A DNA stretch of 64,000 bases from positions 33,472-97,471 of the forward strand of contig CAZYKP010000021.1 of the NCBI GenBank assembly GCA_964648025.1. The letters run 5' to 3'. Of this stretch, positions 2,587 to 63,600 are shown one piece after another; within the stretch, counting starts at the first letter, position 1; each line of letters opens with the position of its first letter. A program made the position numbers and the translations under genes. The DNA is from an uncultured Pirellulales bacterium (GTDB lineage: Bacteria > Planctomycetota > Planctomycetia > Pirellulales > Pb10988). The notes beneath the pieces were generated by a model. It worked only from the letters and a program-made list of their open reading frames with translations, ran no database searches and was not told where the DNA came from.

Positions 2587-2734
2587 GACTGCTGCCTTCG
2601 GAAAAGTCTTGCTCGGCCAAAACACGCCAGCCGCCGGAACGGCCAGTGATCTGGCAGCTGTTGATCTGCCAGCTGTTGATCTGCCAGCCTCTCCGCTGTG
2701 CCGGACGAGACAGGATTTCCCTCAAACTCAGTAG
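2587..2734 (-). repeat. Family A palindromic interspersed element, copy A1
   Basis: Reverse complement aligns by eye with 3531-3705, 4827-4943 and 55934-56051. Begins ~24 nt after the stop of CDS 272-2563. Carries an internal 3 x 15-bp tandem (gatctgccagctgtt, 2648-2692). Confidence 0.85.
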
Positions 2735-2752
2735 CGGATCATCGAGGTGAGT

Positions 2753-2902
2753 CTACTGGCCTTCGGAGAAGTTTTCGACCCAGGGCTTTCCGTCTGCCCT
2801 TGTTTGTGATGACCTCAACGGGGCAGCCTGAGGCACCACAGCAAGCCCGGATTGCCGGACCAAAGGTGCCCGCTTCGTCGAAGACCTTTCAGGGAACCAG
2901 TG
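2753..2902 (+). repeat. Family B palindromic interspersed element, copy B1
   Basis: Aligns by eye over ~150 bp with 11749-11897 and 20466-20615. Termini are ctactg...cagt(a/g). Central hairpin is ctgcccttg...caagggggcag. Confidence 0.85.
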
Positions 2903-3530
2903 ATTATCAATCCCACCCAAAAAGGCAGAAGAACAAGCCAACTGACCCACTCGGCAGATCCTCATCGGCCAAACATAGGGCAGCGAACTGTCTTTCAGGG
3001 CTGGGATCATCCACCGCAGTGAAGCTTCTTGGTGTCTTGGCCAAGAGGCCTCCGAAATCTCCCATCAGGTCATCAAGGACCGCACTGCCGAGTTGCAAGA
3101 AGTGCTTTCTTTTCGGTCAGTCTCTGAGAGTACGGTGAGCTTACAACCCTGGAGAACGATCTGACGCGGACTTCGATGGTGATGGATGTGGCCCTCTGGA
3201 CCAAAGCAACCTGCCCTTCCCTTCTGGCCGACCTCTCCCTTCGGCACATCAAGTCGCTTCGGAGCATTTCGCCTTGTTTGCCGATTTCGTCTTCTCGGCA
3301 ATCTGAGATGCATCAACTCTCGCCTTTGCGAAGGCAGCTGTTTCAGTAAGAACGCTACCGCCATATAAGTAAATCTCGTGCTCAGTGGCTTGTTGATGGA
3401 GGCTCGGCAGACGGTGCGTTGAGAACCGAAATCCACCGGAAGGCTTCACTACGCGGAGACTGAGCGACGGAAACTTCATCTATTCTTCACCACGGACGGC
3501 TTTTGTCGCCGCTCATCGCTAGACATTCTT

Positions 3531-3705
3531 CTACTGAGGTTGAGGAAAATCTTGGCTCCTGCGGTCCAGCGGAACGGCTGGCAGATCAACAGCTGCCAGA
3601 TCAACAGCTGGCAGATCAACAGCTAGATCAACAGCTGGAAGATCACTGGTCGTTACGGCGGCTCGCGTGTTTTGGACGAGCAAGAAACTTACGAACGCAG
3701 CGGTC
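3531..3705 (+). repeat. Family A element, copy A2 (longest)
   Basis: ctactgaggttgaggaaaatcttggctc ... ttttggacgagcaagaaactt. The internal 15-bp unit (ctggcagatcaacag) is present ~4.5 times (3578-3645). Confidence 0.85.
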
Positions 3706-3826
3706 GGGTCTGTCGCTGCGGCAGAAAGGTGCCCCTTGAGGGAAACGTCTCAATAGGATTTACTGGTAGCTTGTTCAGCGGACCAATGCTTTGGTGCACC
3801 ACACGGGGACACTACGGAGCGGAAAC

Positions 3827-4801: not shown

Positions 4802-4814
4802 AACGCTCCCATCG

Positions 4815-5345
4815 ATGGGGACTTGCCTACTGAGGTTGAAGAAATTCTGGACTCGCCCGGCACAGCGGAGAGGCGGCCAAATCACTGGTCGTTCCGGCGT
4901 CTCGCGTGCTCTGGCCGAGCAAGATTTTTCCTCAACAGCAGTCGTTGTCTCACTGCTGGCCCTGCTGGCCGGCTGTGGCGAGACTCCCCCGCAGTTCGGG
5001 GAGGTCGAAGGTGTGCTGTACGTGCGGGGTCAGCCGCAGCCGAACATGACGATCCGTTTTATGCCGGATCCGGCCAAGGGAAATGATGTGGCAGCAAACG
5101 CTAGTGGAACGACAGACGCACAAGGCCGTTATCAGCTCCAAAGCACCTTCAAAGGAAAGGATTTTCAAGGGGCCGCCGTGGGCTGGCATAAGGTGTTAGT
5201 CGAGGATCCCCGATTGTCTGCGTTGCCACAAGGACAGGCTCGGCCACCAGAAATCGTCCCCAGAACTTACGGGAACCCAGCCACCACCAAGCTCAGCAAA
5301 GAGGTCAAGCCGGGCCAGCAGACGATCGACCTGAAAATCGATTGA
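4815..5345 (+). CDS. Small lipoprotein partner of the DUF1559 gene (carboxypeptidase-regulatory-like fold likely); start uncertain
   Basis: Lipobox VVVSLLALLAGCGE, then a beta-rich body (EVEGVLYVRGQP...DAQGRYQL). Every in-frame start upstream of the lipobox (ATG 4815, TTG 4836) lies before or inside repeat A3. Confidence 0.6.
   Translation: MGTCLLRLKKFWTRPAQRRGGQITGRSGVSRALAEQDFSSTAVVVSLLALLAGCGETPPQFGEVEGVLYVRGQPQPNMTIRFMPDPAKGNDVAANASGTTDAQGRYQLQSTFKGKDFQGAAVGWHKVLVEDPRLSALPQGQARPPEIVPRTYGNPATTKLSKEVKPGQQTIDLKID
4827..4943 (+). repeat. Family A element, copy A3 (single internal unit)
   Basis: ctactgaggttgaagaaattctggactcgcccggcacagcgg...ggccgagcaagatttttcctcaacagcagtc. Lies between the DUF1559 stop and the lipobox of the next gene. 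Confidence 0.85.
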
Positions 5346-6873: not shown

Positions 6874-7737
6874 TCAACCTTCTTGAGCGATGCCATACCT
6901 CTTGGCGAGGAATTCCACCACCTGAGCGAGCTGAGCGTCGGTCAGCGACCCGTTGTAGATTCCCAGCTCAGCCAGATCCCCCGCAAAGAATAACTCTTTC
7001 CAGGCGTGCCGGCCGATGAGCTTCCGCGAGGTGATTGCTACCGGAGCGAAGGCTCGGCTCTGCGTGCTCAACTTCCCGTTGATCCACAATTGGGCAGTTT
7101 GTTGGCTGTAGCTGTATCGGTAGGCGATCACTGCGAGGTGTTCTGCGCCCAGTGGCTGGGTTGCATCAACACGGCCGGTCTCGACGGGCGTCTCTCCCAC
7201 GAACCCAGGAAATGCCAGGGCGATGACAAGGGTCGCCTGGAACTCTCCCTCACGGAGCGGCTCACCGATTTGAATGACGCCGGGCTGGAGGGTGCCGGCA
7301 AGCTGCCTACTGGGCGGGCCATCGTAGCTGACGATTTGCCCTCCCCATCTCCGTTGGGGATTCAGGCTGGCCTTGGAATAGGACAACACGCGGATGACCG
7401 TCTGATCATCGGTGGTCTCAAGCTGGGTGGTGACCAAGAAGTCGGAGTCGCCGTCGAACCGCACCGCCGGTTGTCCTCCGATGGCGTTTTGCACCAGCAC
7501 AGGCCGAGCGGTCTGCTCGGGCTGCAGGGCGTCTTCTGCCGATTGGTTTTTCTCGGTGAGCCGACCAAACGACAGCGTGCGCGGTTGCGGTAGTAACCCA
7601 GAATACAGAATCGGGCGATCCCCAAAGCCCAACCGGAGAAGATTTTGAGCTGTCGTACTCGCCGAACTTCTCGGCAACAACGCGAGCGACTTCCTGCACA
7701 ATATCTTCAGCGGTGTGGAAGTCGCTTGTGTTTGCAC
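6874..7737 (-). CDS. LamG/concanavalin-like domain protein, probably the C-terminal remnant of an anti-sigma (FecR-type) protein
   Basis: 287-aa ORF with GTG start. Contains QPAVRFDGDSDFLV and ends FAGDLAELGIYNGSLTDAQLAQVVEFLAKRYG, which is typical of LamG jelly-rolls. No signal peptide, TM or FecR part. Confidence 0.6.
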   Translation of the reverse strand: MQTQATSTPLKILCRKSLALLPRSSASTTAQNLLRLGFGDRPILYSGLLPQPRTLSFGRLTEKNQSAEDALQPEQTARPVLVQNAIGGQPAVRFDGDSDFLVTTQLETTDDQTVIRVLSYSKASLNPQRRWGGQIVSYDGPPSRQLAGTLQPGVIQIGEPLREGEFQATLVIALAFPGFVGETPVETGRVDATQPLGAEHLAVIAYRYSYSQQTAQLWINGKLSTQSRAFAPVAITSRKLIGRHAWKELFFAGDLAELGIYNGSLTDAQLAQVVEFLAKRYGIAQEG

Positions 7738-7858
7738 CGACGTAGGCGGCGATGGCCGGTTGCGCCCGTATCCACAGACCGGCTAATGCGGCAAAACGAT
7801 CGCTGGTCAGCGGCTTCCCGGCAGGTTCTCCTTCTTCCCAGGGTGGGTCATGCGACAT
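7649..7858 (-). pseudogene. ECF sigma-70 region-2 fragment (about 70 aa only)
   Basis: ATG at 7858 gives MSHDPPWEEGEPAGKPLTSDRFAALAGLWIRAQPAIAAYVGANTSDFHTAEDIVQEVARVVAEKFGEYDS, after which the reading becomes Arg/Ala-rich nonsense. Regions 3-4 are absent. It overlaps the 5' end of the LamG ORF in another frame. Confidence 0.5.
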
Positions 7859-8241
7859 GGCCATCAGGCTCCAGACTACAAGGTGCAAAGCGGAAGCCTC
7901 GATCATTGTCTGATCTATTGTGGGTTCCGGATGACAAGACCAGAGCACGCTAGGGCGAACCAAGGCGTGGGGGAGACAGGACCGTGTCGAATTGCCACAA
8001 GGGCTTTGCAGTGACCTCTGCGAGTTCAACATTGACAACCTGTGGCCGGGAACACGGTCATCACCCAAGGGGCAGCCGTGATCGCACCTCAGCATGCCGT
8101 CGGCAAGGCACCAGCCCTTGAACTTGGCAGAACGGTCCATCAACCGATCTCCGGCGTATTGATATCAATGTGTCTAAGAGATGAAAGACCGGCGGGCTGA
8201 TCCCTCAAGCCGCCTCGAGGGAGCGTTCCGAGCGTCTGTCC

Positions 8242-8358
8242 GACTGTTGTGGAGGAAAAATCTTGCCGGTCCGAACTGCGGGAACCGCCGGAAGCATCAG
8301 TGATCTGCCAACCTTTGCGTTGTGCGGGACGAACCAGGAGTTTCCTCAACTTCAGTAA
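8242..8358 (-). repeat. Family A element, copy A4 (more diverged)
   Basis: Reverse complement reads cttttactgaagttgaggaaactcctggttcgtcccgcacaacgc...ggcaagatttttcctccacaacagtc. Confidence 0.75.
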
Positions 8359-8491
8359 AAGGTGGGCCAATCGCTGTTTGGAAACACCCAGCGGCAACGG
8401 GCTGGGTGATCAATCCACCGGCATCCCTGATCAAGGAGTTGCACTCTCCCCTGGGCCTTAGTTAAATTGCCAGAACTTTGTTCCATGTCTC

Positions 8492-8731
8492 TTGGTCACT
8501 CTGAAAAGGACACCACCTGTGAACATCAACAAAGCTCTCAAAAAAGAAGATGAAGGTAAGAGCCTCAAAGAGATTCTGAAACTCCCCGTTCTCTCTCTGC
8601 AGGGTATGTCCGAAGACAAAGCTCAGAAGCTCGAAGAAGCACTGGGCCTGAAAACCATCCAAGACTTGGCCGACTGCAAGTTTTTCCACTGGGCCCAGGC
8701 CATCGCCCAATTAGCTGGTACGGAAGAGTAG
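8492..8731 (+). CDS. Small hypothetical protein (helix-hairpin-helix-like); start uncertain
   Basis: 79-aa ORF (TTG 8492 or GTG 8519). Sequence looks protein-like: SLKEILKLPVLSLQGMSEDKAQKLEEALGLKTIQDLADCKFFHWAQAIAQLA. Confidence 0.5.
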   Translation: MVTLKRTPPVNINKALKKEDEGKSLKEILKLPVLSLQGMSEDKAQKLEEALGLKTIQDLADCKFFHWAQAIAQLAGTEE

Positions 8732-9704
8732 GTCTCTGGCCCTCCGCCCGAGCAATATCAGCATCGCCCAAGACAGATTCAGTCCCCTGGGCCTTGACCC
8801 TGAGCCACCCTGATGGATTGCTGGGTGGCCTTTGGTCGTTATTTCCACACAACCGCCTCTTCCCAACTCACACCAAACGCATCCATTCCAAGATCGATGC
8901 CGGTGGTGTCGCCATGAGAGTTGTGCGCAGACAAACGCATAACCTCGCTCGCAGGACGTGATGCCCTCATGGTCGATTCTAGAAGGGCTTGCCCCCTCCT
9001 TCTCGGCCGGACACCCCAGCCCATCCGCCTCCCTCGCCCACCGACGCCGCCTCGCCCACCGACGCCGCCTCGCCCGTCGCGTTCGCGGACACCGCAGGGA
9101 CTCACCCAGCACTGGACAGCGACACGATGCTCAAGCTCGCCCAGTTGAGCTTGCATGAGGCGTGCGACCGGGCCATTCTTGATACGCTTGCCAACCGGTC
9201 AGGTACCGGCAGATTGCAATCGCTCGCGTGACCGACGATGACGCCAGCCGATTTCGCAGGTCTGCGTGTTTTGGCTTCCGGCGACTGGATCGAAGGGTCC
9301 AGCTCCAGGGTGACCGCAGGCAGCAGCCCGTTGAGGGACCAGCCGGTTGATACACCAAGCGGATGAAACGCTTGCCGTCGGAGTTCGGCAGCTTGCCGAG
9401 GACCGTTGCCCAACCCGACCGTTTCTCCTACTCACTTTCCCAGTGCCGAGACCGTTCAGGATGTGGAGGACCGCAACGGTTGAAAGACCGCTTGGGAAGA
9501 GCCCAAACGGAAAGCTCCCGGAGAGTGACAGTCCACTTTCCGGGAGCCAAGTTCAGATTGAGCTGCGGAGCGGCGATGCCGCCGAATGGATCAGGAGGAA
9601 TTGACGCGATTGATTTCCCGAAAGGCGACCGGCCAGGTCAGTTGCCAAACAACCAGCCAACCAGGCCTCTTCCTCCCGCCCTCGGTCAGAACCTCCTCTG
9701 AGTC

Positions 9705-11267
9705 TTAGTCTTCATCGCCGTCATCTTCATCGCTGTCATCTTCATCGCTGTCATCTTCATCGCTGTCATCTTCGTCCTGATCGTCTTCTTGGTCTTGCTT
9801 CCCGGCGGCGGCAAGGATGGCGTCGATCTGGGCCTCGAAGTCCTCATCGGGGATAGCCATGGGGCCCCCGCGTTTGGGCCGCAGATTCGTGTTGAAGACC
9901 ACATCAGCGATGAGGTTTCCGGCGCGAACCCCTTCGGTTCCGTCGAACCTCCAGTGGACGCCGTTGAACACGCGGCTAGCGGCGTTCTCGGCGGCCGCGT
10001 AGCTAAGGCTTTTGAAGTACCGGGGTACGAGCGGACGGCGGCGATTGAATTGGTCGACAGTCACACCGTTCCACTCCTGGGAGACGAACACGAAGGAAAT
10101 GTCGTCCCGCTGGTAGAAGTTCGCCAGAGTTTTGAAGGCAGCTGCACCAAAGGTGGCGTGGCCCGACGTGTAGGCTGGGAAAGGCGGCGAAAAGTTGTTC
10201 TCGCCGGGCAAGGGATTGCTCCGTGAACCGCCCAAAGCGCACCAGTCCGGATCAGCCTCGGTCAGCGGATTGCCGTCCTCATCGGCCCGTTGGATGCCCA
10301 AAATCGGCCGCCAGTAACGATAAGTGTATTTGCTGTCCCACGCGCTGATGCCGCCATCGGCCATAGCGATATTCAATAACGCGAAAAGACGGGCGTTCTC
10401 GTGGGTCTTGTTCCGTTGCTTCTTGGCGACGACGCGGGCCATCTGGTTGTAGAGGCGGGGTGGGGTGCCAATAAGCGGACTGCCGTTGTAGCTCCAGTAG
10501 TTGGCGATCACATACGTCTCATCGTCGGTGGGCACCACCTGACCCGAGTCACCTCCTCGGAATTCCCCCAACCGTTTCACTTCCTCGAAGGCAACGGCAT
10601 ACTCGAGGCTGTCCAAGGCGGGCGGCTGGGGGGCACGAAATTGGGTGATGTCCTCAACACCGAAGGGCGGCAGCGAGGCGATATCTGGGCTGATGAACGA
10701 TTGATCGATGTTCTTGGGGTCGACATCGTGGTCTCCGGGTTCCCCGGTTGACGTGTAGGTCCCCCCGAGAAACTGCTTATCCTGAGAGCGGAGCTCGAGG
10801 ATCCTTCGTGCGACAATCGTGCCAACCAGCAGGCCTTTGAGCTTTGCTTTTCGGCTGCGGACTCGTTTCAGCGTCTTTAACAACGCCTTGTCGTAAATCT
10901 CCGCTCCTGCTGGAATCAGCTCCTGCAACACATCATAAGCGGCCTTGGCAACCGCAGCGTCGGCAGAAGCCTTTTCCGCCTTGGGCACCAGAGTCAGGTA
11001 CGGCGTGTACCGACAATCGACGGAGTTGTAAGCGTCGAACATCGCCACGTGCACAATGGCCAACACCCGAGCCGACGCCGGCGGCCCCTGCGTGTCGGAA
11101 AGCTCATTACCCGGCAGATCCGGACCGGTGTGATCCAACGCGTTGGCCTTCAGTGCAACCGCATTCCACTCAAGAATGCTATCGACAGGCCGACCGCCCC
11201 AGGCCGAAGCACCCAAAGCGAGGGAGAACAACACACACTGGGCGAAGCAAATCAGTTTCTTCTTCAT
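9705..11267 (-). CDS. PAP2-superfamily / vanadium-haloperoxidase-like secreted protein with poly-acidic C-terminal tail
   Basis: ATG at 11267 gives the signal peptide MKKKLICFAQCVLFSLALGASAWG. All three acid-phosphatase/haloperoxidase motifs are present: KYTYRYWRP, YTSGHA, SRVFNGVHWRFD. Confidence 0.85.
   Translation of the reverse strand: MKKKLICFAQCVLFSLALGASAWGGRPVDSILEWNAVALKANALDHTGPDLPGNELSDTQGPPASARVLAIVHVAMFDAYNSVDCRYTPYLTLVPKAEKASADAAVAKAAYDVLQELIPAGAEIYDKALLKTLKRVRSRKAKLKGLLVGTIVARRILELRSQDKQFLGGTYTSTGEPGDHDVDPKNIDQSFISPDIASLPPFGVEDITQFRAPQPPALDSLEYAVAFEEVKRLGEFRGGDSGQVVPTDDETYVIANYWSYNGSPLIGTPPRLYNQMARVVAKKQRNKTHENARLFALLNIAMADGGISAWDSKYTYRYWRPILGIQRADEDGNPLTEADPDWCALGGSRSNPLPGENNFSPPFPAYTSGHATFGAAAFKTLANFYQRDDISFVFVSQEWNGVTVDQFNRRRPLVPRYFKSLSYAAAENAASRVFNGVHWRFDGTEGVRAGNLIADVVFNTNLRPKRGGPMAIPDEDFEAQIDAILAAAGKQDQEDDQDEDDSDEDDSDEDDSDEDDGDED
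9710..9784. repeat. In-frame 15-bp tandem array (~5 units) encoding the DEDDS-repeat tail
   Basis: cttcatcgc(c/t)gtcat repeated on the plus strand. Translates on the minus strand to DEDDSDEDDSDEDDSDEDDGDED. Confidence 0.9.
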
Positions 11268-11748
11268 CGTGGTCCTCGAGAATGACAGGTTTAACCTTTG
11301 CACTTAGTCAGCTGAGCCCCTTGTTCAGGGAATCCGCTGACTGGAAAAGCCCGTTTGTCGGTAGGAACGATTGCTGGTGATTCCTTCTGCAGCAATTGTT
11401 GGGTCAGTCACTTCGGGTAAGGGATGGGGGTGGGCAACTCAAGATGGAGATGAGCTTTCTTTCCTTAGCGTTTGAGCTGATGCGATCCATACGTCTGTGA
11501 TTGTGAAAGCTCTTGCTCGTCTTGCGTGTTCTGCTTGTTGAGCGACGAAGTCATTCGGTGGGCTGCTGGCTACTTTGTGGACTGAGAGTCGCTTCAGTAT
11601 TTTGTTTCCAGGAGCAAGAAGCTTCCGATCGGTGAGTTAACAAAGGTTGAAGACAATCATCCGTTAACAGTGATGGATGTGTGTCATCGAAGGAGCCTCC
11701 CAGCCAAATGGCGGTAAGGCTTGCAAGGTGTTTGGGCGAAGTTCAGCC

Positions 11749-11897
11749 CTACTGATCTTCGGAGAAGTTTCCGATCCAGGGCTTTCCGTCTGCCCTTGTT
11801 TGTGATGACCTCAAGGGGGCAGCCTGAGGCACCACCGGAAGCCCGGATTGCCGAACGAAACGCCCTGCTTCGTCGAAGACTTTTCAGGGAATCAGTA
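11749..11897 (+). repeat. Family B element, copy B2
   Basis: ctactgatcttcggagaagtttccgatccagggctttccgtctgcccttgtttgtgatgacctcaagggggcagcctgaggcacc...cgaagacttttcagggaatcagta. Confidence 0.85.
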
Positions 11898-12309
11898 AAA
11901 TGCGATGTTTTTTGAAAGGTACTGAGTCCGACCTCAGCGGTCAATCCTCTACGCACTTGGTCGAGTATCACAAACGAAATTTCGATCGCCCCCTGCAGAT
12001 CGATCAGCGGATGAGGGCCTGCCGTTTGACGATCCCGCCTCGTTCTCAACTCTTTTCTGCCAACTTCTTTCTGGCAACTCGTTTCTGGCCCGACCGACTC
12101 ACGTTGTCATTCGTTCTGAAATTCCTTTGGCAAGATGGTGCCACGCGGGCTGGAGGCCGCGAAGAGACTTGGCCCTCTTGGGTGCAACGAACGAGCCGCC
12201 GAGAGCGCGAAGGGCTGTCTCGACGGCTGGGAGTCACCAGAGGGGGTAGGCGTGGGACTGTGCAACGGCCAGGGGAGGCTGGGGCGGCTTTTTGATTCCG
12301 CGACGCGTT

Positions 12310-12375
12310 TTGCCAGTTGGAGACCTTCGGATTGCCAGTTGGAGACCTTCGGATTGCCAGTTGGAGACCTTCGGA
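12310..12375. repeat. 3 x 22-bp perfect tandem array
   Basis: ttgccagttggagaccttcgga x3, ending 5 nt from the stop of the PEP-CTERM gene. The unit resembles the ccaactgccaaatcagaagg arm of family C. Confidence 0.9.
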
Positions 12376-12380: not shown

Positions 12381-13775
12381 TCAAGCCTGCCGGCGGGACC
12401 GCCAAGTCGCCAGGCCGAGAAATCCCAGGGACCACAGCCCTCCGGTCGCCGGCTCGGGGATCACTTGCCCGGCGACGCTTCCGCTCAATCTCAATTGGAT
12501 GAACGTCTGATCGGTCGCTGCGTTGTCGCCTGGGCCGTTATCGAGGACAAACCAGAGTTGGTCTCCTGGATTGAGTTCGCCCAGCGGCAGGGTCAGCAGG
12601 CCGGTGGAGGAACCGTCGAGGGTTCCTGTGGCTAGCTCGCTTCCGCTGCCATCGAGAATGGCGAATCCAATGCCATCGCCGCCGGAACCAGGGTTCTCAA
12701 CGAAGTAGCTCAGCACCAAGTCCTCGAGAGAATCGGTCGCTGTGTATTCGATGGCCAGAAACTCAGGGGGCGTGCTGGAGCTGGAGCCGGGGTGCCCGGC
12801 CAGCACGCCAGGCGGCAGCGTCGCAACACCATCAAAGAGGCCATCATCGCTGATCGCCGGAAACGGCCCACAGCAATCGTTAAAGACTGTTCCGGTGCCG
12901 GCATAGCCGTCGCCCCCTTCCAGACCAGTGGAGCCAAATGTCAGCAAGGCCAGTCCACCGTTGGTTGGGTCGCTGTCGGTGTCGCTGTAGTAGTTCCACA
13001 GGCCGGAGTTGGTACCCGAGATACCAAGATCGCTGCTTGTCTGCCCATCTGCCGGGGCTTCGCGATAGTCAGCGGCAAGGTCGGCGATGATCGTCGAAGA
13101 CTCGCCAATGGTGCCGTCGTTGGGGCCGAGCAGCTCAGTCGGATCAAAGGCCCCTGCGAAGGTCGAGACACGAACACGATCGATCGAACCATCAAACACA
13201 CCGTTGGGAACATCAAAGTTGTGGCCGCCGATGGTGATGACGCCCGAGTCGGTCAGGGTGATGTTGCCGTCTCCGCCGCCGCTGTCAAACTCCAAACCGT
13301 TGACGTACAGAGAACTGTCGCCAGCCTCACGGACATAGGCCAGCGCGACGCTTGCAGTAGGAGGGTTGCCATGAGGAAATAGACCTGGAAAACCCACACC
13401 GCTGGTGATGGCTCGCCAGCTTCCACCTTGGGCGACGACCCCGTAGCCGGAATTGGAGCCATCAGCGTTGGTAATCGATGCGGTGAAGTTAAAGACCCCG
13501 AAAGTCTCGGCTGAGACAATCGTCTCCAAAACAACGTTGTCCGTCGCGACCGTCGGTGCCACCGCCTGAATGTAGTCACCGGCCCCATCGAGCACCAGTT
13601 GCCCGTCGACATAGGTCGGGTCGCCAAATTCAGCAAATCCGACCGGCGCCTGATCATCGGCGAAGTCGTAATCCGCCACAGTGATCAGCTGGGCACCCGC
13701 GGTGGTTGTCATTCCAACCAAAGCCCCCAGAAACAAACAGATCTGTGCCATCCGCATCGTGTTTCTCGCAAACAA
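12381..13775 (-). CDS. PEP-CTERM-anchored secreted protein
   Basis: Signal peptide MRMAQICLFLGALVGMTTTAGAQ. C-terminus VIPEPATGGLWSLGFLGLATWRSRRQA fits the PEP motif plus TM plus basic tail. The body is Gly/Asp/Thr-rich and beta-type. Confidence 0.85.
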   Translation of the reverse strand: MFARNTMRMAQICLFLGALVGMTTTAGAQLITVADYDFADDQAPVGFAEFGDPTYVDGQLVLDGAGDYIQAVAPTVATDNVVLETIVSAETFGVFNFTASITNADGSNSGYGVVAQGGSWRAITSGVGFPGLFPHGNPPTASVALAYVREAGDSSLYVNGLEFDSGGGDGNITLTDSGVITIGGHNFDVPNGVFDGSIDRVRVSTFAGAFDPTELLGPNDGTIGESSTIIADLAADYREAPADGQTSSDLGISGTNSGLWNYYSDTDSDPTNGGLALLTFGSTGLEGGDGYAGTGTVFNDCCGPFPAISDDGLFDGVATLPPGVLAGHPGSSSSTPPEFLAIEYTATDSLEDLVLSYFVENPGSGGDGIGFAILDGSGSELATGTLDGSSTGLLTLPLGELNPGDQLWFVLDNGPGDNAATDQTFIQLRLSGSVAGQVIPEPATGGLWSLGFLGLATWRSRRQA

Positions 13776-14497
13776 AGGGTAGGAACCGAGATTGTTCTGA
13801 GCTCCGAACTAAGGTTCGGAATTTCGACAGGAAATCCGTTCTTGGGATGATGTCTCGCCGGACCGATGGAGCATGCTTGGCAACGGGAGGGAGCTGTTGT
13901 GGGTCGGCTTCAAGAACCTGACAGAGCGCCAACACCCAAACCGGCAAGTCAGAGTGTTCCACACTGGCAGTCAGAGCCAACAATCGAAAGCAAAGCAGAT
14001 CCGCCCGATGGTTTCTCGGGGGTCGGTGTTTGGATGTGGTTTTAGGGGGCAAAAGAACCGGACACCAAGGGAAAGTTACCCTAACGGAACGTCCTCTCAA
14101 TAGCAAGGAAATTCGTTGTTTCTTGGGGAAAGGCCGTTGACAGGCTTCAGAGTGCTGGCGATTGGCTTCCATCTTCCAGTCATTGGCGATGAACATCCCT
14201 GGCCTGAGCCAGACAACTGCCGACAGTTTTTTGGACCAGTGGGATGCCTACGCTGAGTCAGACAAGTTTCCGACCCAGGGCAACCAACGGAAGCCCGAAT
14301 CGCCGAGCGTTGATCCGTGGTACCCAGATCACGTTCTGATCGCGACACCTTGCTGGGTCGCGTGCTTCAGCCTGACCGTCGCAGTCATGACGGGCTTGAT
14401 TTGACACCTGCGACACGAGAAGCATAGGTTTTGTGAGGGATTGCGACCGCTTTGGGCGATCTGCAGGCCATTCCCCCAAAAGTCGGGTAACTGACCG

Positions 14498-51857: not shown

Positions 51858-52220
51858 GATCGGCGGGCTCGGGACGCAGGGGCTTCGTCTTGATCAAAGC
51901 CGATGTCACAATCACGCGTGCTGTGCGTTGAGATGCTCTTTGGCTATTGTGAAACAAGGCTTGAAACCTCAGGAAAATTGCTGATGCCCCCCAGAGCGAA
52001 TTCGAGCTGTTGGCCGCCGACTGTGGCAGAAACGAGTTGCCCAACTGCCGTAACTCTTAGAACAGTCCCCAATGTGGCTCTTGTCCCCAAGACCTCGTAG
52101 TCACCCGGGACCTTGCAGCCACCCGAGACCTTGTAGCCACCCTGCTTTTTGGTGGGTTGCAACTTGCTGGTCCTGACGGAGTCCGCCTCAGCCCCTATCT
52201 AGAACCAATCTGGAACAGTC

Positions 52221-55247: not shown

Positions 55248-55326
55248 AGCGCGTGATCTTGAACAGCGCGTGATCTTGGAAAGCGTGATCTTGGAAAGCG
55301 TGATCTTGGAAAGCGTGATCTTGGAA
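55248..55326. repeat. 5-unit tandem array (17/15-bp units)
   Basis: agcgcgtgatcttg(a/g)a(c/a) x2, then agcgtgatcttggaa x3. Lies between the yqgE stop and the next ATG at 55409. Confidence 0.9.
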
Positions 55327-55408
55327 AGCATGGATCCGATGGAAACTCTTGGACACTGCCGTTGAGACTGTTTCAGGGCTTGAGACTGCCGAACTGAAGG
55401 AGCGACTG

Positions 55409-55879: not shown

Positions 55880-55933
55880 AACACTCGGCCGCTGGCGCCA
55901 CAAAGGCACCTTGCACCTTGAACCTTGCTTCGC

Positions 55934-56051
55934 CTGCGGAGGTTGCGGAAAATCTTGGCTTGTCCGGCCCAGCGGAAAGGCTGCCAATTCACCGGTCATT
56001 CCAACTGCTGGCGTGTTTTGGCCGAGCAAGAATCTTCCGATCGCAGCAGTC
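55934..56051 (+). repeat. Family A element, copy A5
   Basis: cctgcggaggttgcggaaaatcttggcttgtccggcccagcggaaaggctgcc...ttttggccgagcaagaatcttccgatcgcagcagtc. Confidence 0.8.
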
Positions 56052-56102
56052 ACACGTCTCGCCTCACTTGCCTCGCCCCACTCGACTTTGGGAAGAAAAC
56101 GG

Positions 56103-57313: not shown

Positions 57314-57495
57314 GCTGTTTCTCCTGCATGAGATGGTTGATGATGAGATTTCTGTGAACTACCCCTCTCTTTCAACGCTTGGGTGCAGGGTGTTTTTCTG
57401 GATTGCTCGTACCTCGACTGTTCCAGATCGTGGCAGAGGTCCAACCTGGAGTGCCCTCAACAAATCCAGGCAAGAACATCTGGGTGAGCACAAGG

Positions 57496-57596
57496 TCTCA
57501 GAGTCTGTCCGAAATAGTGGCGGAGGCACAACGGCTGGTGGCTCACGAGTCTTGATGCAACGAATCCTCGTTGTGCCGGGACACTTTTCGGACAGT
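57496..57596 (+). repeat. Family D element, copy D2
   Basis: tctcagagtctgtccgaaatagtggcggaggcacaacggctggtggctcacgagtcttgatgcaacgaatcctcgttgtgccgggacacttttcggacagt. It is the inverted counterpart of 14498-14598. Confidence 0.9.
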
Positions 57597-57602
57597 CACT
57601 CA

Positions 57603-57670
57603 GAGGTTGAGGGTTCTCAGAGGTTGAGGGTTCTCAGTGCTTGAGGGTTCTCAGTGCTTGAGGGTTCTCA
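57603..57670. repeat. 4 x 17-bp tandem array abutting D2
   Basis: gaggttgagggttctca x2, then gtgcttgagggttctca x2. Confidence 0.9.
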
Positions 57671-58053
57671 GGGGGCAGGAGGTTTTGGGACAAGGGCTAC
57701 ATCTGGGCCTTTCCAACGATCTGAGTTTGTCGGCAGTGTTCGTCCCAGGTTGGATTCCTCGTGAAGCCCGAAGAGCGTACTGCCTCTGGACTCAATCCAG
57801 CGGACTCGTTGGTTTTGAGGGGCTCAGATTTGTCAAACTGCAAGACCGGAGTTGCAAGACCAGAACTGCTGAAACGTATCCTTGGGGCCTGACCCTGGTG
57901 AGGTGGCCATCAAGAGGCTAGACTCCCCTCGGCATAGGCTGCTACTTCTGCAAGGTCGTTCCGACTCCACTGCTCTATTCTGGGAACGGTGGGAGGCCCA
58001 TCTCTCAGGGAGCGTTCCTACCTTCCCAACTGGCTCTCGACACTGGTTGCTTT

Positions 58054-61000
58054 ATGGAACGTCGACGTTCTTACTCATCCCCTGTTGCCTGGATTTTGCT
58101 GGTGGTCTGCACCACTGGCCCTAGCTGGGCCGGTGACTGGCCGATGTGGCGATATGGGGCCCTACGTGGCGGGGCTGCACCAGATGCTCTGCCGACCAAT
58201 CTGAAGCTCGCCTGGACCCGTCAACTGCCCCCGGCCAACCCAGCTTGGCCGGTCACGCAACCACGGCTCCGCTTTGACGTGGCCCCGCATCCGGTCGCGG
58301 CAGGAGAACGGATCTTCGTCCCCTCGACAGTCACCGACTCGGTGACCGCCTACGACACACACAGCGGCCGGCAACTCTGGCGTCGTGTGGCAGACGGTCC
58401 GGTGCGGTTTGCTCCTGTTGTCAACCAAGGGCGTGTTTACTTTGTCAGCGATGACGGGCATTTGTACTGTGTTGACGCCAACACGGGAGACTTGAAGTGG
58501 AAAGTCTCCGGGGGGCCAACCGATCGGCGGATTCTGGGAAACAGCCGTCTGATCTCCACTTGGCCTGCGCGAGGAGGACCGGTGCTCCATCAGGGACGCA
58601 TCTATTTTACCGCCAGCATCTGGCCGTTTATGGGGATCTTCGTTCATGCGGTCGACCCAGAATCCGGCCAAATCATCTGGACCAACAGCGGTGACGGCAC
58701 CAACTGGACCATCCAACCGCATGGGGCGCCATCCTTCGCAACGGTCTCACCACAAGGTCACCTCGCGGCCTCCGGAGATTATTTGATCGTTCCCGGGGGG
58801 CGAAGCGTGCCAGCGGTTTTTGATACCAACGATGGTCAGCTTCTCCATTTTCGCTACAGTGGCAAGCACGGCGGTCATGAGGTCTGGGCCACCGATACCA
58901 GCTACTTTGTTGGAGGAAACGGTTACGCCCTCTCCAGCGGTGGCAATGTCGCTCTGCCCCAGCCCACCTTCATCGCCGGAGATCGCCAGGTGCTGGCCAG
59001 CTCGGACAGCGTCCGCCTGCTTCAGTCGGTCTCCGCGGAACAAGCCCCCCGGCAGAAGCTTCTCCGCGACCGCCGAGGTCAACTGTTGGAGGCTGACCGA
59101 AAGCATCTTCTTGAGCAGTCAGTTGTGCGGCTGGCTCGTCCAGTCTCAGCCGGTTGGCTGCTGCAGGCAGGTCCCATCCTGGTGGGAATGGAATCCCCGC
59201 AACAGTTGGTCGCCTATCAGTTGCCGGAGAACTCCGATCCCCAGACTCCCCTGCAACCAGTCTGGAGCCACCCCATTGAGGGCCAGGTCTGGTCTGCCTT
59301 GGCCGCCGATGACCGCCTGTTTGTGGTGACCCTCGATGGCAAGTTGTCCTGCTTTGCGCCTGAGAGAGAATCCGAGAAACCGACTCACCATCCTCTCTCC
59401 GAAAAATCCTTGGCCTCTTCCGAAGACGCCGCTGCCCTCCTGGCCACCAAGCTGTTGGCCGAGCCATCCTCCCGGCAAGGTTATGGGGTGGTCCTCGGTC
59501 TTCAAGACGGGCGGTTGGTCGAGGAACTGCTGCAACGGTCCGACTTGATGTTGATTGCGGTTGATCCGCAAGCCGAGCGAGTCACCGCCCTTCGCAAGCG
59601 GCTGATCGCCGCTGGACTCTATGGCCGTCGAGTTTCGGTGCATCAAGGCGACCTCAGCACATTCTCCCTGCCCCCCTATCTCGCCAATGTGCTCACCAGC
59701 GAGCGACCGGAAACAGCCGCCGGTTGGATCGCTCACGCCTCCGGTAGTCTGCGGCCCTACGGTGGCCGCATCGTATTGGCCACCACCAAGCAGCAGCACG
59801 CTGGACTAAGCAAACAAATTGAGAACCCGACAACTTTCGAGAAACAGGGCGGCCAACATCCCTCCAGCCAGCAACCTGACGCCTCGGCATTGGTGCTTCG
59901 CCGAACTCCCACTGGGCTGACAGTCATCGTCAGAGAGGGTCCTCTGCCCGGCAGCGACAGTTGGACTCACCAATATGGTAATCCAGCTCAAACAGGGATT
60001 TCCCAAGAAACTCTTGTGAAGGTCCCGTTGGGGATCCTGTGGTTTGGCGGCCCCTCGCATGAGGGAATCTTGCCCCGCCATGGGCATGGTCCTACCCCTC
60101 AAGTCGCCGGAGGCCGTGTGGTCATTGAGGGACCGGACAAGCTCCGAGCGCTGGACGCCTACACAGGTCGGCTTCTGTGGGAAACGCAGTTTCCGGGCCT
60201 TGGAACGTTTTATGATTCGACGGCGCATCAAGCTGGGGCGGGAGAAATCGGCAGCAATTATGTGACTCTCTCGGATGCCATCTATGTGGTCTACGGTGAT
60301 CGGATCGTGGAATTGGACCCCGAAACAGGTGAGCCCCGGCGGGAGCTGCAGGCCCCATCTCAAGGCGACACCTCGCTGCTCTTTGGTTTCGCCGCAGTCG
60401 ATGGCGACACCCTATTCGCCGCCGCAGCACCACTGGCGGTCAATCCCTCCCGGCAAGGCAGCTCGATTCGGAAACCGGTGCTGCCCCAAGGCGCCTGGAA
60501 GGTCATCAAGGAACATGCTAACTGGCGTTATCTGGCTGGCTCAGACGCCCCTAAAAACTGGGAGTCGATCGGCTTTGATGATTCTCAGTGGCCCTCAGGA
60601 CCGACCTCCATCGGTTACGGTGATGGCGACGACAAAACTCTGCTGAACATGCGGGGGAAGTTTGTGCGGGTCTATATTCGACACCGATTCGAAGGGAAAA
60701 ATCTCCAAGGGATTAAAAAACTTGCCCTGGTGTTGAACTACGACGACGCCTTTATCGCCTACCTCAACGGCCAGGAGGTCGCCCGAGGCGGTGTCGGTTC
60801 AGGTCGTGGACCTGATGCCCAGGGGATCGCCAGCCACGAGGCCCGTGGGGCTGAGTATTTTGAGATCAAGGATTTCGCCAAGCTTCTACGGGCCGGGAAA
60901 AACGTGCTCTGCATTGAAGGACACAACAGAAGCATCAACAGTAGTGACTTCACCTTAGATCCCTTCTTGGTCGCCCTCGGTGGTCAGGCCGCGCAAAAGG

Positions 61001-62511
61001 CCCCATCCTCCGTTCTCGTCCAGGGCCAGCCCAAACAGCCAGATTCCAAACAACCAGGTTCCAAACAGCCAGGTTCCAAACAGCCGGGTTCCAAACAGCC
61101 GGGTTCCAAACAGCCAGGATCCAAACAGCCAGGATCCGAGAAGTCGCAGGTTCCGGCAGCCTTTCGCGAGATCCTTTCGCAACGGGAAGCTTATGCCTCA
61201 GGAAGCCGCTTCTTGATCGCCTTCGATCGCCGCACGGGCAGAAAACTCTGGCAGCGTGAGGCCCAGTTTAACTTTAGGCACAATAATATCGCCCTGGGGG
61301 CCAGCAAAGTCTTTTGTATCGATGCTCTTTCTGAGGCGAAAAAGGCGACGCTCCGCCGTCGAGGAATCGAGTTGCCCGGCCAACCAACCCTGTATGCCTT
61401 GGATGCTCGGTCTGGCGAGGTCGTCTGGCAAACTCATCAGCCGGTCTTTGGGACCTTCCTCAACTATTCCGCCGCTCATGATCTGCTCATTCAAGGGGGC
61501 AGTGCTTATCGGGACCGCGCCCGGGATGAGGTCGGACAGGGCCTGGCCGCCTTCCAGGGATCCGATGGGCAACTCGTCTGGCACAAGCCCACCTTTTCCT
61601 ATGGTGGACCTTGCCTCCTTTGGCGCGACTCCATCGTCACCAACGGCGCTGGGGGACAAGCCCTGGATATCCGCACTGGTGAGCCCACCGGCTGGAGCTA
61701 TCGCCGCAACTACGGCTGCAATACAGCTGTGGGCTGCCAGAACCTGCTGACCTTCCGTTCCGGGGCCGCTGGCTTCTTTGATTTGGCCAGTGACTCGGGC
61801 ACCGGAAACTTGGGCGGGTTCCGATCCAGTTGCACCAACAACCTGATCCCAGCCGATGGTTTGCTCAACGCCCCAGACTACACCCGTACTTGCAACTGTG
61901 CGTATCAGAATCAGACCTCCTTGGCTCTGATTCATTTGCCCCAGGCTGAGTTCTGGGCTTTCGGGGCTGTCTCAGCCGGAAAGCGGTTGGGGATCAACTT
62001 CGCAGCGCCTGGGGACCGCCGAGATGCCCAAGGAACTCTCTGGGTGGATGTCCCGAGCGTGGGTGGACCCTCTCCCCAAGCCGAAGTGAAGCTCTTTCCC
62101 CAAGAAGGTTGGCAGGTCTTTCGTCAGCACAGCTCGCGTGTGCAGGAGGGTTCGTTGCCTTGGGTGGCCGCCTCAGGATTGGAGGGGATTCAACAGATTC
62201 AGTTGCCAGCGCGAGAAGGCCAGCGGTATCAGTTGCGACTGATTTTCCTGGAACCCCGCGAGCAGATGCAGGGCCGCAGGGTCTTCGATGTGTTCGTCCA
62301 AGGCCACATGCGGCTGAGGGGTTTGGATGTGCATCAGCAGGCCGGTGGTCCCTGGCGGGCGTTGACCAAGCGGCTGCAGGTGTCCGGCTCGAAAGACGGA
62401 ATCACAATTGAGTTCAAACCGCAAGGGAGTGAGCAAGCTGTGATCTCGGGAATTGAGTTGGTTCCGGCAAAGGCGACCAACCCTGATGAGTCCGAGACCT
62501 CGGCTCAGTAG
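58054..62511 (+). CDS. 1485-aa secreted multidomain protein: PQQ-like propeller, SAM-methyltransferase-like module, second propeller, jelly-roll module, third propeller, malectin-like C-terminus
   Basis: Signal peptide VAWILLVVCTTGPSWAG. Repeated propeller strings (VYFVSDDGHLYCVDANTGDLKWK, LRALDAYTGRLLWE, LYALDARSGEVVWQ). Methyltransferase-like GYGVVLGLQDGRLVEELL...LIAVDPQ...VSVHQGD. WRYLAGSDAPKNWESIGFDDSQWPSG. C-terminal RVFDVFVQG. Confidence 0.85.
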   Translation: MERRRSYSSPVAWILLVVCTTGPSWAGDWPMWRYGALRGGAAPDALPTNLKLAWTRQLPPANPAWPVTQPRLRFDVAPHPVAAGERIFVPSTVTDSVTAYDTHSGRQLWRRVADGPVRFAPVVNQGRVYFVSDDGHLYCVDANTGDLKWKVSGGPTDRRILGNSRLISTWPARGGPVLHQGRIYFTASIWPFMGIFVHAVDPESGQIIWTNSGDGTNWTIQPHGAPSFATVSPQGHLAASGDYLIVPGGRSVPAVFDTNDGQLLHFRYSGKHGGHEVWATDTSYFVGGNGYALSSGGNVALPQPTFIAGDRQVLASSDSVRLLQSVSAEQAPRQKLLRDRRGQLLEADRKHLLEQSVVRLARPVSAGWLLQAGPILVGMESPQQLVAYQLPENSDPQTPLQPVWSHPIEGQVWSALAADDRLFVVTLDGKLSCFAPERESEKPTHHPLSEKSLASSEDAAALLATKLLAEPSSRQGYGVVLGLQDGRLVEELLQRSDLMLIAVDPQAERVTALRKRLIAAGLYGRRVSVHQGDLSTFSLPPYLANVLTSERPETAAGWIAHASGSLRPYGGRIVLATTKQQHAGLSKQIENPTTFEKQGGQHPSSQQPDASALVLRRTPTGLTVIVREGPLPGSDSWTHQYGNPAQTGISQETLVKVPLGILWFGGPSHEGILPRHGHGPTPQVAGGRVVIEGPDKLRALDAYTGRLLWETQFPGLGTFYDSTAHQAGAGEIGSNYVTLSDAIYVVYGDRIVELDPETGEPRRELQAPSQGDTSLLFGFAAVDGDTLFAAAAPLAVNPSRQGSSIRKPVLPQGAWKVIKEHANWRYLAGSDAPKNWESIGFDDSQWPSGPTSIGYGDGDDKTLLNMRGKFVRVYIRHRFEGKNLQGIKKLALVLNYDDAFIAYLNGQEVARGGVGSGRGPDAQGIASHEARGAEYFEIKDFAKLLRAGKNVLCIEGHNRSINSSDFTLDPFLVALGGQAAQKAPSSVLVQGQPKQPDSKQPGSKQPGSKQPGSKQPGSKQPGSKQPGSEKSQVPAAFREILSQREAYASGSRFLIAFDRRTGRKLWQREAQFNFRHNNIALGASKVFCIDALSEAKKATLRRRGIELPGQPTLYALDARSGEVVWQTHQPVFGTFLNYSAAHDLLIQGGSAYRDRARDEVGQGLAAFQGSDGQLVWHKPTFSYGGPCLLWRDSIVTNGAGGQALDIRTGEPTGWSYRRNYGCNTAVGCQNLLTFRSGAAGFFDLASDSGTGNLGGFRSSCTNNLIPADGLLNAPDYTRTCNCAYQNQTSLALIHLPQAEFWAFGAVSAGKRLGINFAAPGDRRDAQGTLWVDVPSVGGPSPQAEVKLFPQEGWQVFRQHSSRVQEGSLPWVAASGLEGIQQIQLPAREGQRYQLRLIFLEPREQMQGRRVFDVFVQGHMRLRGLDVHQQAGGPWRALTKRLQVSGSKDGITIEFKPQGSEQAVISGIELVPAKATNPDESETSAQ
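61033..61137. repeat. In-frame 7 x 15-bp tandem array (KQPGS)
   Basis: aaaca(g/a)cc(a/g)g(a/g)ttcc x7 inside CDS 58054-62511. Confidence 0.9.
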
Positions 62512-62591
62512 CCCAAAGGGCGGAGGCGATCAACCCAGTTGATCCTCGGCCACCGCGAGCCCACAGACCGCAAGGCTGCAGGCTTGTGATC

Positions 62592-62671
62592 CTTAAAGAC
62601 TGTGACGCTTAAAGACTGTGACGCTTAAAGACTGTGACGCTTGAAGACCGTGACGCTTGAAGACTGTGATC
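62592..62671. repeat. 5 x 16-bp tandem array
   Basis: cttaaagactgtgacg x3, then cttgaagaccgtgacg and cttgaagactgtgatc. Lies in the convergent intergenic region between 62511 and 62731. Confidence 0.9.
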
Positions 62672-62730
62672 TTCTTGGGGATTGCGGTCCGCAGAGGAGG
62701 CCTGTTAGGTGTTCTGATCACCGATGACCG

Positions 62731-63600
62731 TTAGAGGTACTCGTCCTCGAGCTGATCAAGGGTCTCTGGGTCGAACTGATCATCAGGTTGAGGTCGCTTT
62801 GGCGGTGCGGCGAAGAGCATGTTGTACAACTCATGATGCCGCTCTGGCCGGATGCAATAGAAGTTGTGTTTGCCCTCTCGCCGAGAATCCACCAACTGCA
62901 GACCTTTGAGCAATTTGAGATGGTGGCTGACCGCAGGTTGGCTCTGGTGGCATAAGTCACAGAGGGCGCGAACATGCAACTCGCCGTTCTGGAACAAGTA
63001 GAACAAAATCCGCAAGCGTGTTCGATCTGACAGCACCTGAAAGATGTTCCTCAGATGCTCAACGGTCTCATCAAGGTCCGCCTGCGATAGCAACGGGAAA
63101 CCTTCACCGAGCGTCGCCGACCCGACTGGCCCCTCACCGGCCACCCCGGGGCCGGCTCCTGATTGACTGGAAACGTCATCAGCTGACTTTTGGCCTGTTG
63201 GCCTTTCCAATGCAACGGCAAGCTCGGCAGCAGCAAGTCGGTCCTGAGGGGCGATCGTCGGCAAAGGAGTGCTCTGGTTTGCTGGTCGGTCAGCTGACTT
63301 GTCGGCCGCTCGGTGGGAAGCCGGTTGTTCCTCAGCCGGTTGTTCCTCAGCCGGTTCTTGACGAGCGGGCGAGATGAGGTTGGCAGGAGCAACTCCATCG
63401 CCAGGGGGGCAGTTTGGGTTTGGTTCACTCGAAGGAGAGCGAACGCCTTGCGGAATTGTTGGGTCGGATCGAGGAGATGTTGATGTGTTTTCGATTCGGC
63501 GGCTCTGCGGATGAAGTGACCCGCGGTTCTTATCCATGATGACGTCGGTCTTCACCAAAACACCTCTTCGAGGCTCTTCCAAAAGTGTCCTGGACCCCAA
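62731..63600 (-). CDS. ArsR/SmtB-family transcriptional regulator with a long low-complexity N-terminal extension
   Basis: C-terminal ~100 aa: LSDRTRLRILFYLFQNGELHVRALCDLCHQSQPAVSHHLKLLKGLQLVDSRREGKHNFY. Start is ambiguous (TTG 63600 or ATG 63537). In-frame 15-bp repeat (AEEQP x2) at ~63321-63350. Confidence 0.75.
   Translation of the reverse strand: MGSRTLLEEPRRGVLVKTDVIMDKNRGSLHPQSRRIENTSTSPRSDPTIPQGVRSPSSEPNPNCPPGDGVAPANLISPARQEPAEEQPAEEQPASHRAADKSADRPANQSTPLPTIAPQDRLAAAELAVALERPTGQKSADDVSSQSGAGPGVAGEGPVGSATLGEGFPLLSQADLDETVEHLRNIFQVLSDRTRLRILFYLFQNGELHVRALCDLCHQSQPAVSHHLKLLKGLQLVDSRREGKHNFYCIRPERHHELYNMLFAAPPKRPQPDDQFDPETLDQLEDEYL

Follow-up and report, generated by a model that had tools for sequence, protein, structure and literature searches.

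The 64-kb window studied here (the whole stretch of DNA that was analysed) comes from an uncultured Pirellulales bacterium and carries 28 short tandem arrays, most with units of 13–18 nt repeated head to tail. Its G+C content is 57–58%. Genes typical of Planctomycetota encode a DUF1559 protein with an N-terminal methylation motif, DUF1573 and DUF7133/HEAT proteins, a sulfatase, a cytochrome c554-like protein and PQQ/malectin giants; they stand beside housekeeping genes, namely nadA and genes for aspartate kinase, a glutamine amidotransferase, a 2-hydroxyacid dehydrogenase, TerC and a prolyl oligopeptidase. The aspartate kinase finds its best match in a Pirellulales genome bin, both among GTDB species representatives (64% identity) and in a large protein collection (69% identity). 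The gene order aspartate kinase/ATP-grasp/hydantoinase-like is common to relatives, where it lies on contigs of up to 122 kb, and near-identical sequence is present at a depth of ~8× in four 2018 ‘stromatolite metagenome’ runs (X1–X4). Collectively, the planctomycete and housekeeping genes, the presence in these runs and the synteny with the relatives' contigs identify the window as part of the chromosome of an uncultured Pirellulales bacterium whose lineage is rather isolated. A tRNA search of the window found nothing and an Rfam search gave no match. Genes were modelled after training on open reading frames (ORFs) with Pfam hits, which gives a coding share of 75%; two modelled starts correspond to database proteins of identical length (P0001, a DUF1573 protein of 481 residues, and P0038, an aspartate kinase of 604 residues).

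Arrays were detected with Tandem Repeats Finder (TRF; score at least 50, non-overlapping). The first-pass annotation had described more than 20 dense short arrays in 64 kb, with most copies perfect or near perfect, and both statements hold: every array it listed is recovered within a few bases, and three are added, at 12047 (3.1 × 14 nt), 45744 (2.0 × 16 nt) and 52086 (3.2 × 18 nt). Its entry of eight 18-nt units at 33280 needs correction, since two abutting arrays with different 18-nt units lie there (33280–33372, 5.2 copies, and 33367–33430, 3.6 copies). Its in-frame array at 63321 does lie inside a long ArsR-type open frame (first array position 63319) and is possibly upstream of the true start codon. 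Independent assemblies of the four stromatolite runs (Logan contigs, k = 31) served for comparison. In the following list, strand is given for the arrays that have one, and families A, B and D are dispersed repeats described below.

2647–2688: intergenic array, 2.8 × 15 nt (TGATCTGCCAGCTGT), within a family B copy (minus orientation)
3573–3645: intergenic array, 5.1 × 15 nt, reverse complement of the 2647 unit, within a family B copy
9032–9075: array in a gene-poor segment, 2.4 × 18 nt, perfect; spanned identically by Logan X2 record 11
9709–9773, minus strand: in-frame array, 4.3 × 15 nt; C-terminal acidic tail (EDDSD)n of a VCPO_N/PAP2 protein (9705–11267, minus)
12047–12089: intergenic array, 3.1 × 14 nt, 82% matches (older array)
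12310–12375: intergenic array, 3.0 × 22 nt, perfect; 6 nt past the stop codon of gene 12381–13751 (minus)
16919–16972: intergenic array, 3.4 × 16 nt; 15 nt past the stop of the TPR gene 14793–16904; spanned by Logan X1 record 7 and X2 record 15
20863–20898: array, 2.1 × 17 nt; left arm of a palindromic element of dispersed family A
22577–22631: intergenic array, 3.1 × 18 nt; convergent spacer
24596–24629: intergenic array, 2.6 × 13 nt, perfect; divergent spacer
31052–31155: intergenic array, 6.1 × 17 nt; upstream of the glutamine amidotransferase gene (30399–31016, minus)
33280–33372: intergenic array, 5.2 × 18 nt; downstream of nadA
33367–33430, minus strand: array crossing a stop codon, 3.6 × 18 nt; C-terminus (NSAEHP)n of the NHL-repeat gene 33387–34517 (minus); abuts array 33280
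36874–36918, plus strand: in-frame array, 5 × 9 nt; (ANQ)n in a hydrophilic loop of a Wzy_C O-antigen-ligase-like membrane protein
39486–39588, plus strand: in-frame array, 6.9 × 15 nt; (ELKET)7 in the DUF1573 protein P0001
43058–43107: array, 2.9 × 17 nt; palindromic element of family A, convergent spacer
45328–45413: intergenic array, 5.7 × 15 nt; 33–118 nt upstream of the aspartate kinase start codon (45295, minus)
45744–45775: intergenic exact duplication, 2.0 × 16 nt
47354–47405, plus strand: in-frame array, 3.5 × 15 nt; (NRSVP)n in a hydantoinase_A-like enzyme
48581–48622: intergenic array, 3.0 × 14 nt, perfect; 39 nt past a stop codon
48842–48886: intergenic array, 2.8 × 16 nt; upstream of an ABC ATPase gene
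51290–51342, plus strand: in-frame array, 3.5 × 15 nt; (NPGQP)n, C-terminal tail of the TerC membrane protein
52086–52142: intergenic array, 3.2 × 18 nt, 82% matches; upstream of the prolyl oligopeptidase gene; spanned by Logan X1 record 2
55251–55329: intergenic array, 5.1 × 15 nt
57599–57671: intergenic array, 4.3 × 17 nt; its opening CTCAG is the final 5 nt of a family D element
61031–61137, plus strand: in-frame array, 7.1 × 15 nt; (KQPGS)7 in a 1485-residue PQQ/malectin protein; matched exactly by Logan X1 record 7 (59380–62621)
62592–62669: intergenic array, 4.9 × 16 nt; convergent spacer
63319–63356: array, 2.5 × 15 nt, perfect; 5′ leader or N-terminal extension (EEQPA)n of an ArsR-type regulator

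Array 47354 is followed by a second, weak repeat of 14–15 nt (47403–47432). The gene-poor segment extends over ~2 kb (7633–9704), has one weak ORF of 70 codons and holds a family B copy (8241–8357) besides array 9032.

Density and size class of the arrays

Chance does not produce such a collection, as the 28 arrays compare with a mean of ~0.27 (range 0–2) in 30 dinucleotide-preserving shuffles. The resulting density, 0.44/kb or one array per 2.3 kb, is 5–6 times that of a control set of ~1.2 Mb made up of 23 planctomycete loci (0.083/kb in 359 kb) and 57 other bacterial loci (0.074/kb in 856 kb). It is also ~7 times that of the closed long-read genome of Kuenenia stuttgartiensis, which has 260 TRF repeats in 4,406,153 bp, or 0.059/kb (PMC5854607). 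The impression that the density is atypical for bacteria is thus borne out (0.44/kb versus 0.07–0.08/kb), and other counts agree: arrays with at least four copies amount to 172/Mb versus 8/Mb in the controls, and a SATFIND-like count gives 125/Mb versus 4/Mb. Under the definition of tandem-repeat (TR) regions used for Borg elements (at least 50 nt, at least three units, no mismatch), the window has seven regions covering 431 nt (0.109/kb, 0.67% of the sequence), the planctomycete controls none in 359 kb and the other controls four in 856 kb. Arrays are evenly spaced along the whole window (2–5 per 8 kb).

The arrays are real, recently formed tandem duplications. Logan contigs match arrays 9032, 16919, 52086 and the seven-unit array 61031 without any difference; at long perfect arrays they end, as expected with k = 31, after extending 30 nt inside and across a unit junction. 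Variant units occur in neighbouring blocks (AABB in array 57599, pairs in array 61031), and this block order is a trace of stepwise duplication. Between copies, identity grades continuously from 100% to 82%, a spread more in keeping with arrays that keep arising and decaying than with a single burst. A separate difference between assemblies concerns window positions 18152 (A) and 18154 (T), where the Logan contigs have C (X1–X3 at the former, all four runs at the latter); it reflects a consensus difference between the window assembly and the runs found.

The most telling property of the arrays is their size. The period is 13–18 nt in 26 of the 28 (the other two have 9 and 22 nt), versus 32 of 93 control arrays. 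A peak created by the detection threshold was considered and ruled out by tallying exact duplications (at least two copies) for each period from 6 to 40, a count with equal sensitivity across periods. For 13–18 nt, 22 such duplications occur in the window against 0.35 expected per 64 kb, a ~60-fold excess; the controls have seven, scattered over 1.26 Mb. Periods of 6–12 nt are at or under control and chance levels (19 observed versus 38 expected from the controls for period 6, and 3 versus 4.8 for period 7), and periods of 19–40 nt are missing from the window apart from one of 22. Mono- to pentanucleotide repeats show no excess over planctomycete controls.

As head-to-tail arrays, the repeats come within the unit range of variable-number tandem repeats (VNTRs) or minisatellites (~10–100 nt). 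The units have directly adjacent copies and no spacers, so that CRISPR arrays are excluded. On the plus strand their composition is A 18.9%, C 30.6%, G 26.7% and T 23.8%, versus 20.8% A in the window; the units show no base bias, and an A-rich bias of the Borg type is absent. No motif or binding site shared among the units passes family-wise control. CTCAG/CTGAG occurs in 7 of the 26 distinct units (arrays 24596, 33280, 33367, 39486, 45328, 57599 and one more) versus 1.4 expected, a borderline value given that the 95th percentile of the null maximum is also 7; it is possibly nothing, or a weak seed preference. Degenerate units show no constant polarity with respect to strand or gene, since about four arrays point each way as judged by eye.

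Local origin and dispersed repeat families

The window holds several dispersed small repeat families, and these record how arrays are born. In family B, unit number at one and the same site is 1, 1, 1, 2.8 and 5.1 (alignment A1): three copies have a single AAAGGCTGGCAGATC-like unit, the copy at 2580–2745 has 2.8 units and the copy at 3505–3710 has 5.1. In family A, the three copies have one, two and three units of 17 nt (alignment A2). The single-copy ancestor contains the full unit with ~1 nt of flanking microhomology. As paralogues of families A and B retain the single-unit state at array sites, arrays arise in place from local sequence and differ in unit number, a result obtained between paralogous copies within one genome. 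Array 57599 begins and ends with CTCAG, the last 5 nt of a family D copy.

Local origin does not mean that the arrays are dispersed repeats. Elements of the REP (repetitive extragenic palindromic) or MITE (miniature inverted-repeat transposable element) type were rejected as a general account, with only 4 of the 28 arrays inside such families and one more adjoining; all other units occur at their own locus only. The earlier statement that the units are unrelated in sequence accordingly stands in general and fails for two pairs, the only ones shared, both of which belong to dispersed families. A relation between the units of arrays 31052 and 52086 (14 of 17 matches) was discarded because the flanks give no support.

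The families deserve description in their own right. Family A is a palindromic element of ~130 nt (copies at 20846–20961, 28878–28975 and 43040–43172), and the copy at 43036–43176 folds as a hairpin that is long and imperfect (z –3.8). Across the four runs its k-mer depth is ~1300 versus ~8 for the flanks, with many different flanks, which implies a community total of ~150 copies, probably located in this genome. It has no Rfam match; a single core match among Joint Genome Institute (JGI) metagenome contigs (L081, 72% G+C, unrelated) was dismissed as a chance match. Family C is a dispersed intergenic element (2747–2901, 11743–11897, 17664–17727 on the minus strand, 20461–20617 and 51481–51576 on the minus strand) with a depth of ~1000 versus 8 (~130 copies). 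Family D has two inverted copies (14491–14599 and 57495–57603; depth ~280), and family B five copies (2586–2734, 3514–3705, 4810–4944, 8241–8357 and 55917–56052; depth ~100). The genome thus looks very rich in small MITE/REP-like repeats. At 2586–3705, two inverted family B copies, each with its own array, bracket ~800–900 bp containing a family C copy; the pair could be a composite mobile unit or the outcome of nested insertions, and no transposase was found.

Placement in genes, spacers and related genomes

Six arrays lie wholly in ORFs, and a seventh (33367) extends past a stop codon to include part of a C-terminus. In all seven the period is divisible by 3 (15, 9, 15, 15, 15, 15 and 18 nt), in agreement with the first-pass view that in-gene arrays keep the reading frame, versus 9 of 21 intergenic arrays, near the one-third chance level. 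Intergenic density (~1.3/kb) is 10 times the coding density, and arrays are present in 16 of the 33 spacers of at least 100 bp. Spacer type matters little, with 1.27/kb in tandem, 1.58/kb in convergent and 1.22/kb in divergent spacers. Such placement is the pattern of mutational input across the DNA, purged by selection where harmful, and not that of promoter-linked switches.

All in-gene peptide repeats are hydrophilic and of low complexity, and are sited in C-terminal tails, loops and linkers; from their composition they are probably disordered. The two in-gene arrays compared with homologues both lie inside insertions that the homologues lack. The hydantoinase_A-like protein aligns with a 333-residue syntenic relative over residues 38 to ~88 and 209 to 504, and an extra low-complexity segment of ~120 residues, in which S, P, D, Q and G abound, contains (NRSVP)n. 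The DUF1573 protein P0001 aligns with a 391-residue homologue at residues 35–240 and 354–480, and its extra residues 241–353 (a ~105-residue insertion) contain (ELKET)7. Both repeats thus sit in lineage-specific insertions of otherwise conserved proteins.

Related genomes lack the trait at the corresponding place. The nearest relatives, two loci from JGI metagenomes (L082 and L083) and one from a Logan assembly (L084), share 69% aspartate kinase identity and the same gene order, and their syntenic loci (13–22 kb) have no short arrays; their sole repeat is a 165-nt protein-domain repeat. The spacer between the aspartate kinase and ATP-grasp genes is 154 bp in the relatives versus 596 bp, with two arrays, in the window, and the ATP-grasp and hydantoinase-like genes, which overlap by 4 nt in the relatives, are separate here. 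The ATP-grasp_3 and hydantoinase_A-like genes are divergent beside aspartate kinase (45892–48542), an arrangement kept in L082 (7757–9846) and L084 (1478–3555). Two other planctomycete bins have a modest local excess of 15–18-nt arrays: locus L010 has three dispersed ones in 22 kb (at 1718, 6425 and 20192), and locus L015 has a cluster within 3 kb (15275–17963), probably one repetitive gene. Weaker forms of the repeat trait may occur elsewhere in the phylum.

Origin of the arrays and their place among known repeats

The explanation that we prefer, with a probability of about 0.65, is a lineage-specific, size-restricted tandem duplication and expansion of local sequence, filtered by selection. 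The excess at 13–18 nt, which has no counterpart at 6–12 nt or in microsatellites, favours a size-specific process. A local stretch of ~13–18 nt (once 22, once 9) would be duplicated in place with 0–8 nt of microhomology; the array would then gain or lose units to reach 2–7 copies, and point mutations would slowly degrade the copies from 100% to 82% identity. In ORFs, selection would let survive only periods divisible by 3, in tolerant C-terminal tails, loops and inter-domain linkers, and all other arrays would build up in spacers regardless of promoter or terminator context. What could set the length is a molecular ‘ruler’, for which candidates are the re-ligation of displaced flaps or of excision-repair patches of ~12–17 nt, or a dedicated enzyme. 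Bacterial excision-repair patches measure 12–13 nt, or ~16–17 nt with the Cho nuclease, and primer or flap strands displaced during Okazaki-fragment maturation give fragments of similar size. Re-ligating such strands could duplicate a fixed length.

Several points weigh against this explanation. The data are one 64-kb window of one metagenomic contig, and the ruler is speculation. The peak at 15 nt is partly due to the frame filter. Continuing gain and loss of units is deduced from near-perfect identity and from the comparison of paralogues, and the arrays spanned by Logan contigs have no indels in the four samples. For the longest perfect arrays (~100 nt), the assembler or the read length may have set the unit number. 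Finally, the sampled relatives are distant (69% in a conserved enzyme), which limits how closely the time and place of the trait's origin can be fixed.

The first-pass annotation had left a choice between a slippage-prone background and a specific mechanism; the size distribution, with 13–18 nt enriched ~60-fold and neither 6–12 nt nor 1–5 nt enriched, speaks for a specific size-restricted process and disfavours general replication slippage or a mismatch-repair defect. In a generic background of this kind, lost mismatch repair or single-strand exonucleases, or a polymerase of low processivity, would raise the instability of all repeats, and the arrays would be just one manifestation of it. Hyper-slippage, for instance after the loss of mismatch repair, is expected to raise short-unit repeats first, and these are not raised in the window. 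Intergenic enrichment would fit neutral accumulation, and microhomologies of 5–8 nt, such as slipped mispairing uses, exist at arrays 9032, 24596, 63319, 51290 and 57599; however, many other arrays have whole-number copy counts and 0–2 nt of microhomology. Hairpin-driven slippage is ruled out as well, the hairpin potential of the units being no higher than that of shuffled units (mean z +0.18). A generic slippage-prone background is therefore unlikely.

A dedicated repeat-making enzyme encoded elsewhere in the genome, integrase-like or linked to a polymerase, as proposed for Borgs, and imposing a fixed unit size, would account for the narrow size class, for the absence of arrays in the nearest relatives, for whole-number copies with minimal microhomology in several arrays and for a Borg-level density under the Borg criterion (PMC9879509). 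Yet no candidate gene lies within the window, the units have no boundary or seed motif, and the A-rich bias of Borg repeats is missing. This proposal, which we consider improbable, overlaps the preferred size-restricted process and differs from it only in invoking a special enzyme in place of an ordinary by-product of replication or repair.

The arrays might instead be selected elements, in which a change of unit number tunes promoter spacing, leader or 3′-untranslated-region function, or protein tails. Their position at gene ends and in leaders (6 nt after a stop codon for 12310, 15 nt after a stop for 16919, 33–118 nt before a start for 45328) and the occurrence of peptide repeats mostly in membrane or secreted-type proteins agree with this, and the first-pass annotation had suggested contingency loci subject to phase variation. 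This suggestion is not supported: in-gene units are all multiples of 3, so that the frame cannot be switched on and off; convergent spacers devoid of promoters are as dense (1.6/kb) as divergent (1.2/kb) or tandem ones (1.3/kb); and there is no common motif for one regulator to read. Moreover, units of 13–22 nt far exceed those of classic contingency repeats, and the arrays have neither an Rfam match nor conservation in syntenic relatives. A regulatory role thus has little probability, and length variation of protein tails or untranslated regions is possible. Least probable by far, and in practice excluded, is that an assembler looping through short repeats created false arrays or copies: the contig does come from a short-read metagenome (~8× depth in the runs found) and the longest arrays end near 105 nt, a possible read-length or k-mer limit, but an assembler cannot generate the multiples-of-3 rule in genes, the internal variants are ordered in blocks, and the independent k = 31 assemblies contain several arrays with identical sequence and extend 30 nt inside perfect ones, across a unit junction.

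The closest parallel to the window arrays is the pervasive perfect TRs of Borgs, which Methanoperedens carries as extrachromosomal elements (Schoelmerich et al. 2023; PMC9879509). Borg TRs have a mean density of 0.056/kb and cover 0.62% of the sequence (PMC9879509), so that the share is similar in the window (0.67%, inside the range of about 0.3–1% that marks Borg-type repeats) and the number of regions per kb is twice as high (0.109). In both, units are unique to their locus and derived from local sequence; in-ORF units are all divisible by 3 and intergenic ones mostly not (9 of 21 here versus 14–38% in Borgs); low-complexity peptide repeats lie at termini or between domains and are missing from homologues; some arrays straddle a spacer and the end of an ORF (33367 here); and the closest related genomes have virtually none of these repeats. 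There are also differences. Borgs are giant linear archaeal elements, whereas the window resembles a bacterial chromosome, carries housekeeping genes and keeps synteny with relatives; it has 58% G+C and no A-rich bias of its units. Units are 13–22 nt versus 9–54 nt in Black Borg (S14 Table), arrays are shorter (2–7 units) and ~75% are intergenic versus ~56%. In Borgs, unit number varies within populations; here, variation is seen between paralogues within one genome, and the Logan contigs have no indels at the arrays that they span. The window repeats thus resemble Borg repeats, yet the window is not a Borg.

Prokaryotic satellites, such as those of Methanosarcina and Burkholderia mallei, have been surveyed by Subirana & Messeguer (2019; PMC6749651). 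They share with the window arrays units of 10–30 nt, genic and intergenic locations, a multiple-of-3 bias in genes and strong enrichment in few lineages. Surveyed densities have medians of 0–3/Mb, with 4/Mb in Rhodopirellula baltica and maxima of 22/Mb in bacteria and 89/Mb in archaea (PMC6749651); if the window is representative, its 125/Mb by a similar count exceeds every surveyed genome. Satellites of Burkholderia and Chloroflexus often derive from one hexamer or heptamer family, whereas nearly every unit is unique here. VNTR loci, as used in multiple-locus VNTR analysis, and contingency loci are likewise tandem arrays able to change length by slipped mispairing, some of them in surface proteins or upstream regions. 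In contingency loci, units of 1–9 nt cause frameshifts or change the spacing of promoters, whereas the units here are 13–22 nt long, keep the frame and occur alike in all types of spacer. A genome has tens of VNTRs, versus one array per 2.3 kb in the window.

Detailed accounts of repeats at such a density exist for Borg elements and a few archaea, and in the literature searched we found no report for Planctomycetota or for any bacterial chromosome. The arrays, at 5 to 60 times the usual bacterial density, suggest a size-specific duplication process that also adds new floppy segments to proteins. In genomes of this type, assembly errors and misassigned gene starts are a particular risk. If the trait is genome-wide, the restriction to 13–18 nt with no excess of shorter units would provide a concrete mechanistic constraint that work on Borgs lacks, and comparison of repeat-rich with repeat-poor sister genomes could identify the replication or repair gene responsible. 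A bolder proposal, tentative and on balance doubtful, is that this planctomycete lineage independently gained a genome-wide tandem duplication ruled at 13–18 nt and convergent with Borg repeats, as a by-product of repair patches or flaps or as the work of an enzyme, which would continuously make disordered protein segments and enlarge spacers. If it is true, a bacterial chromosome offers a route to the mechanism of Borg-type repeats through comparative genomics and possibly cultivation. In a genome-wide setting, the arrays would be a live example of new disordered linkers and tails entering conserved enzymes and surface proteins.

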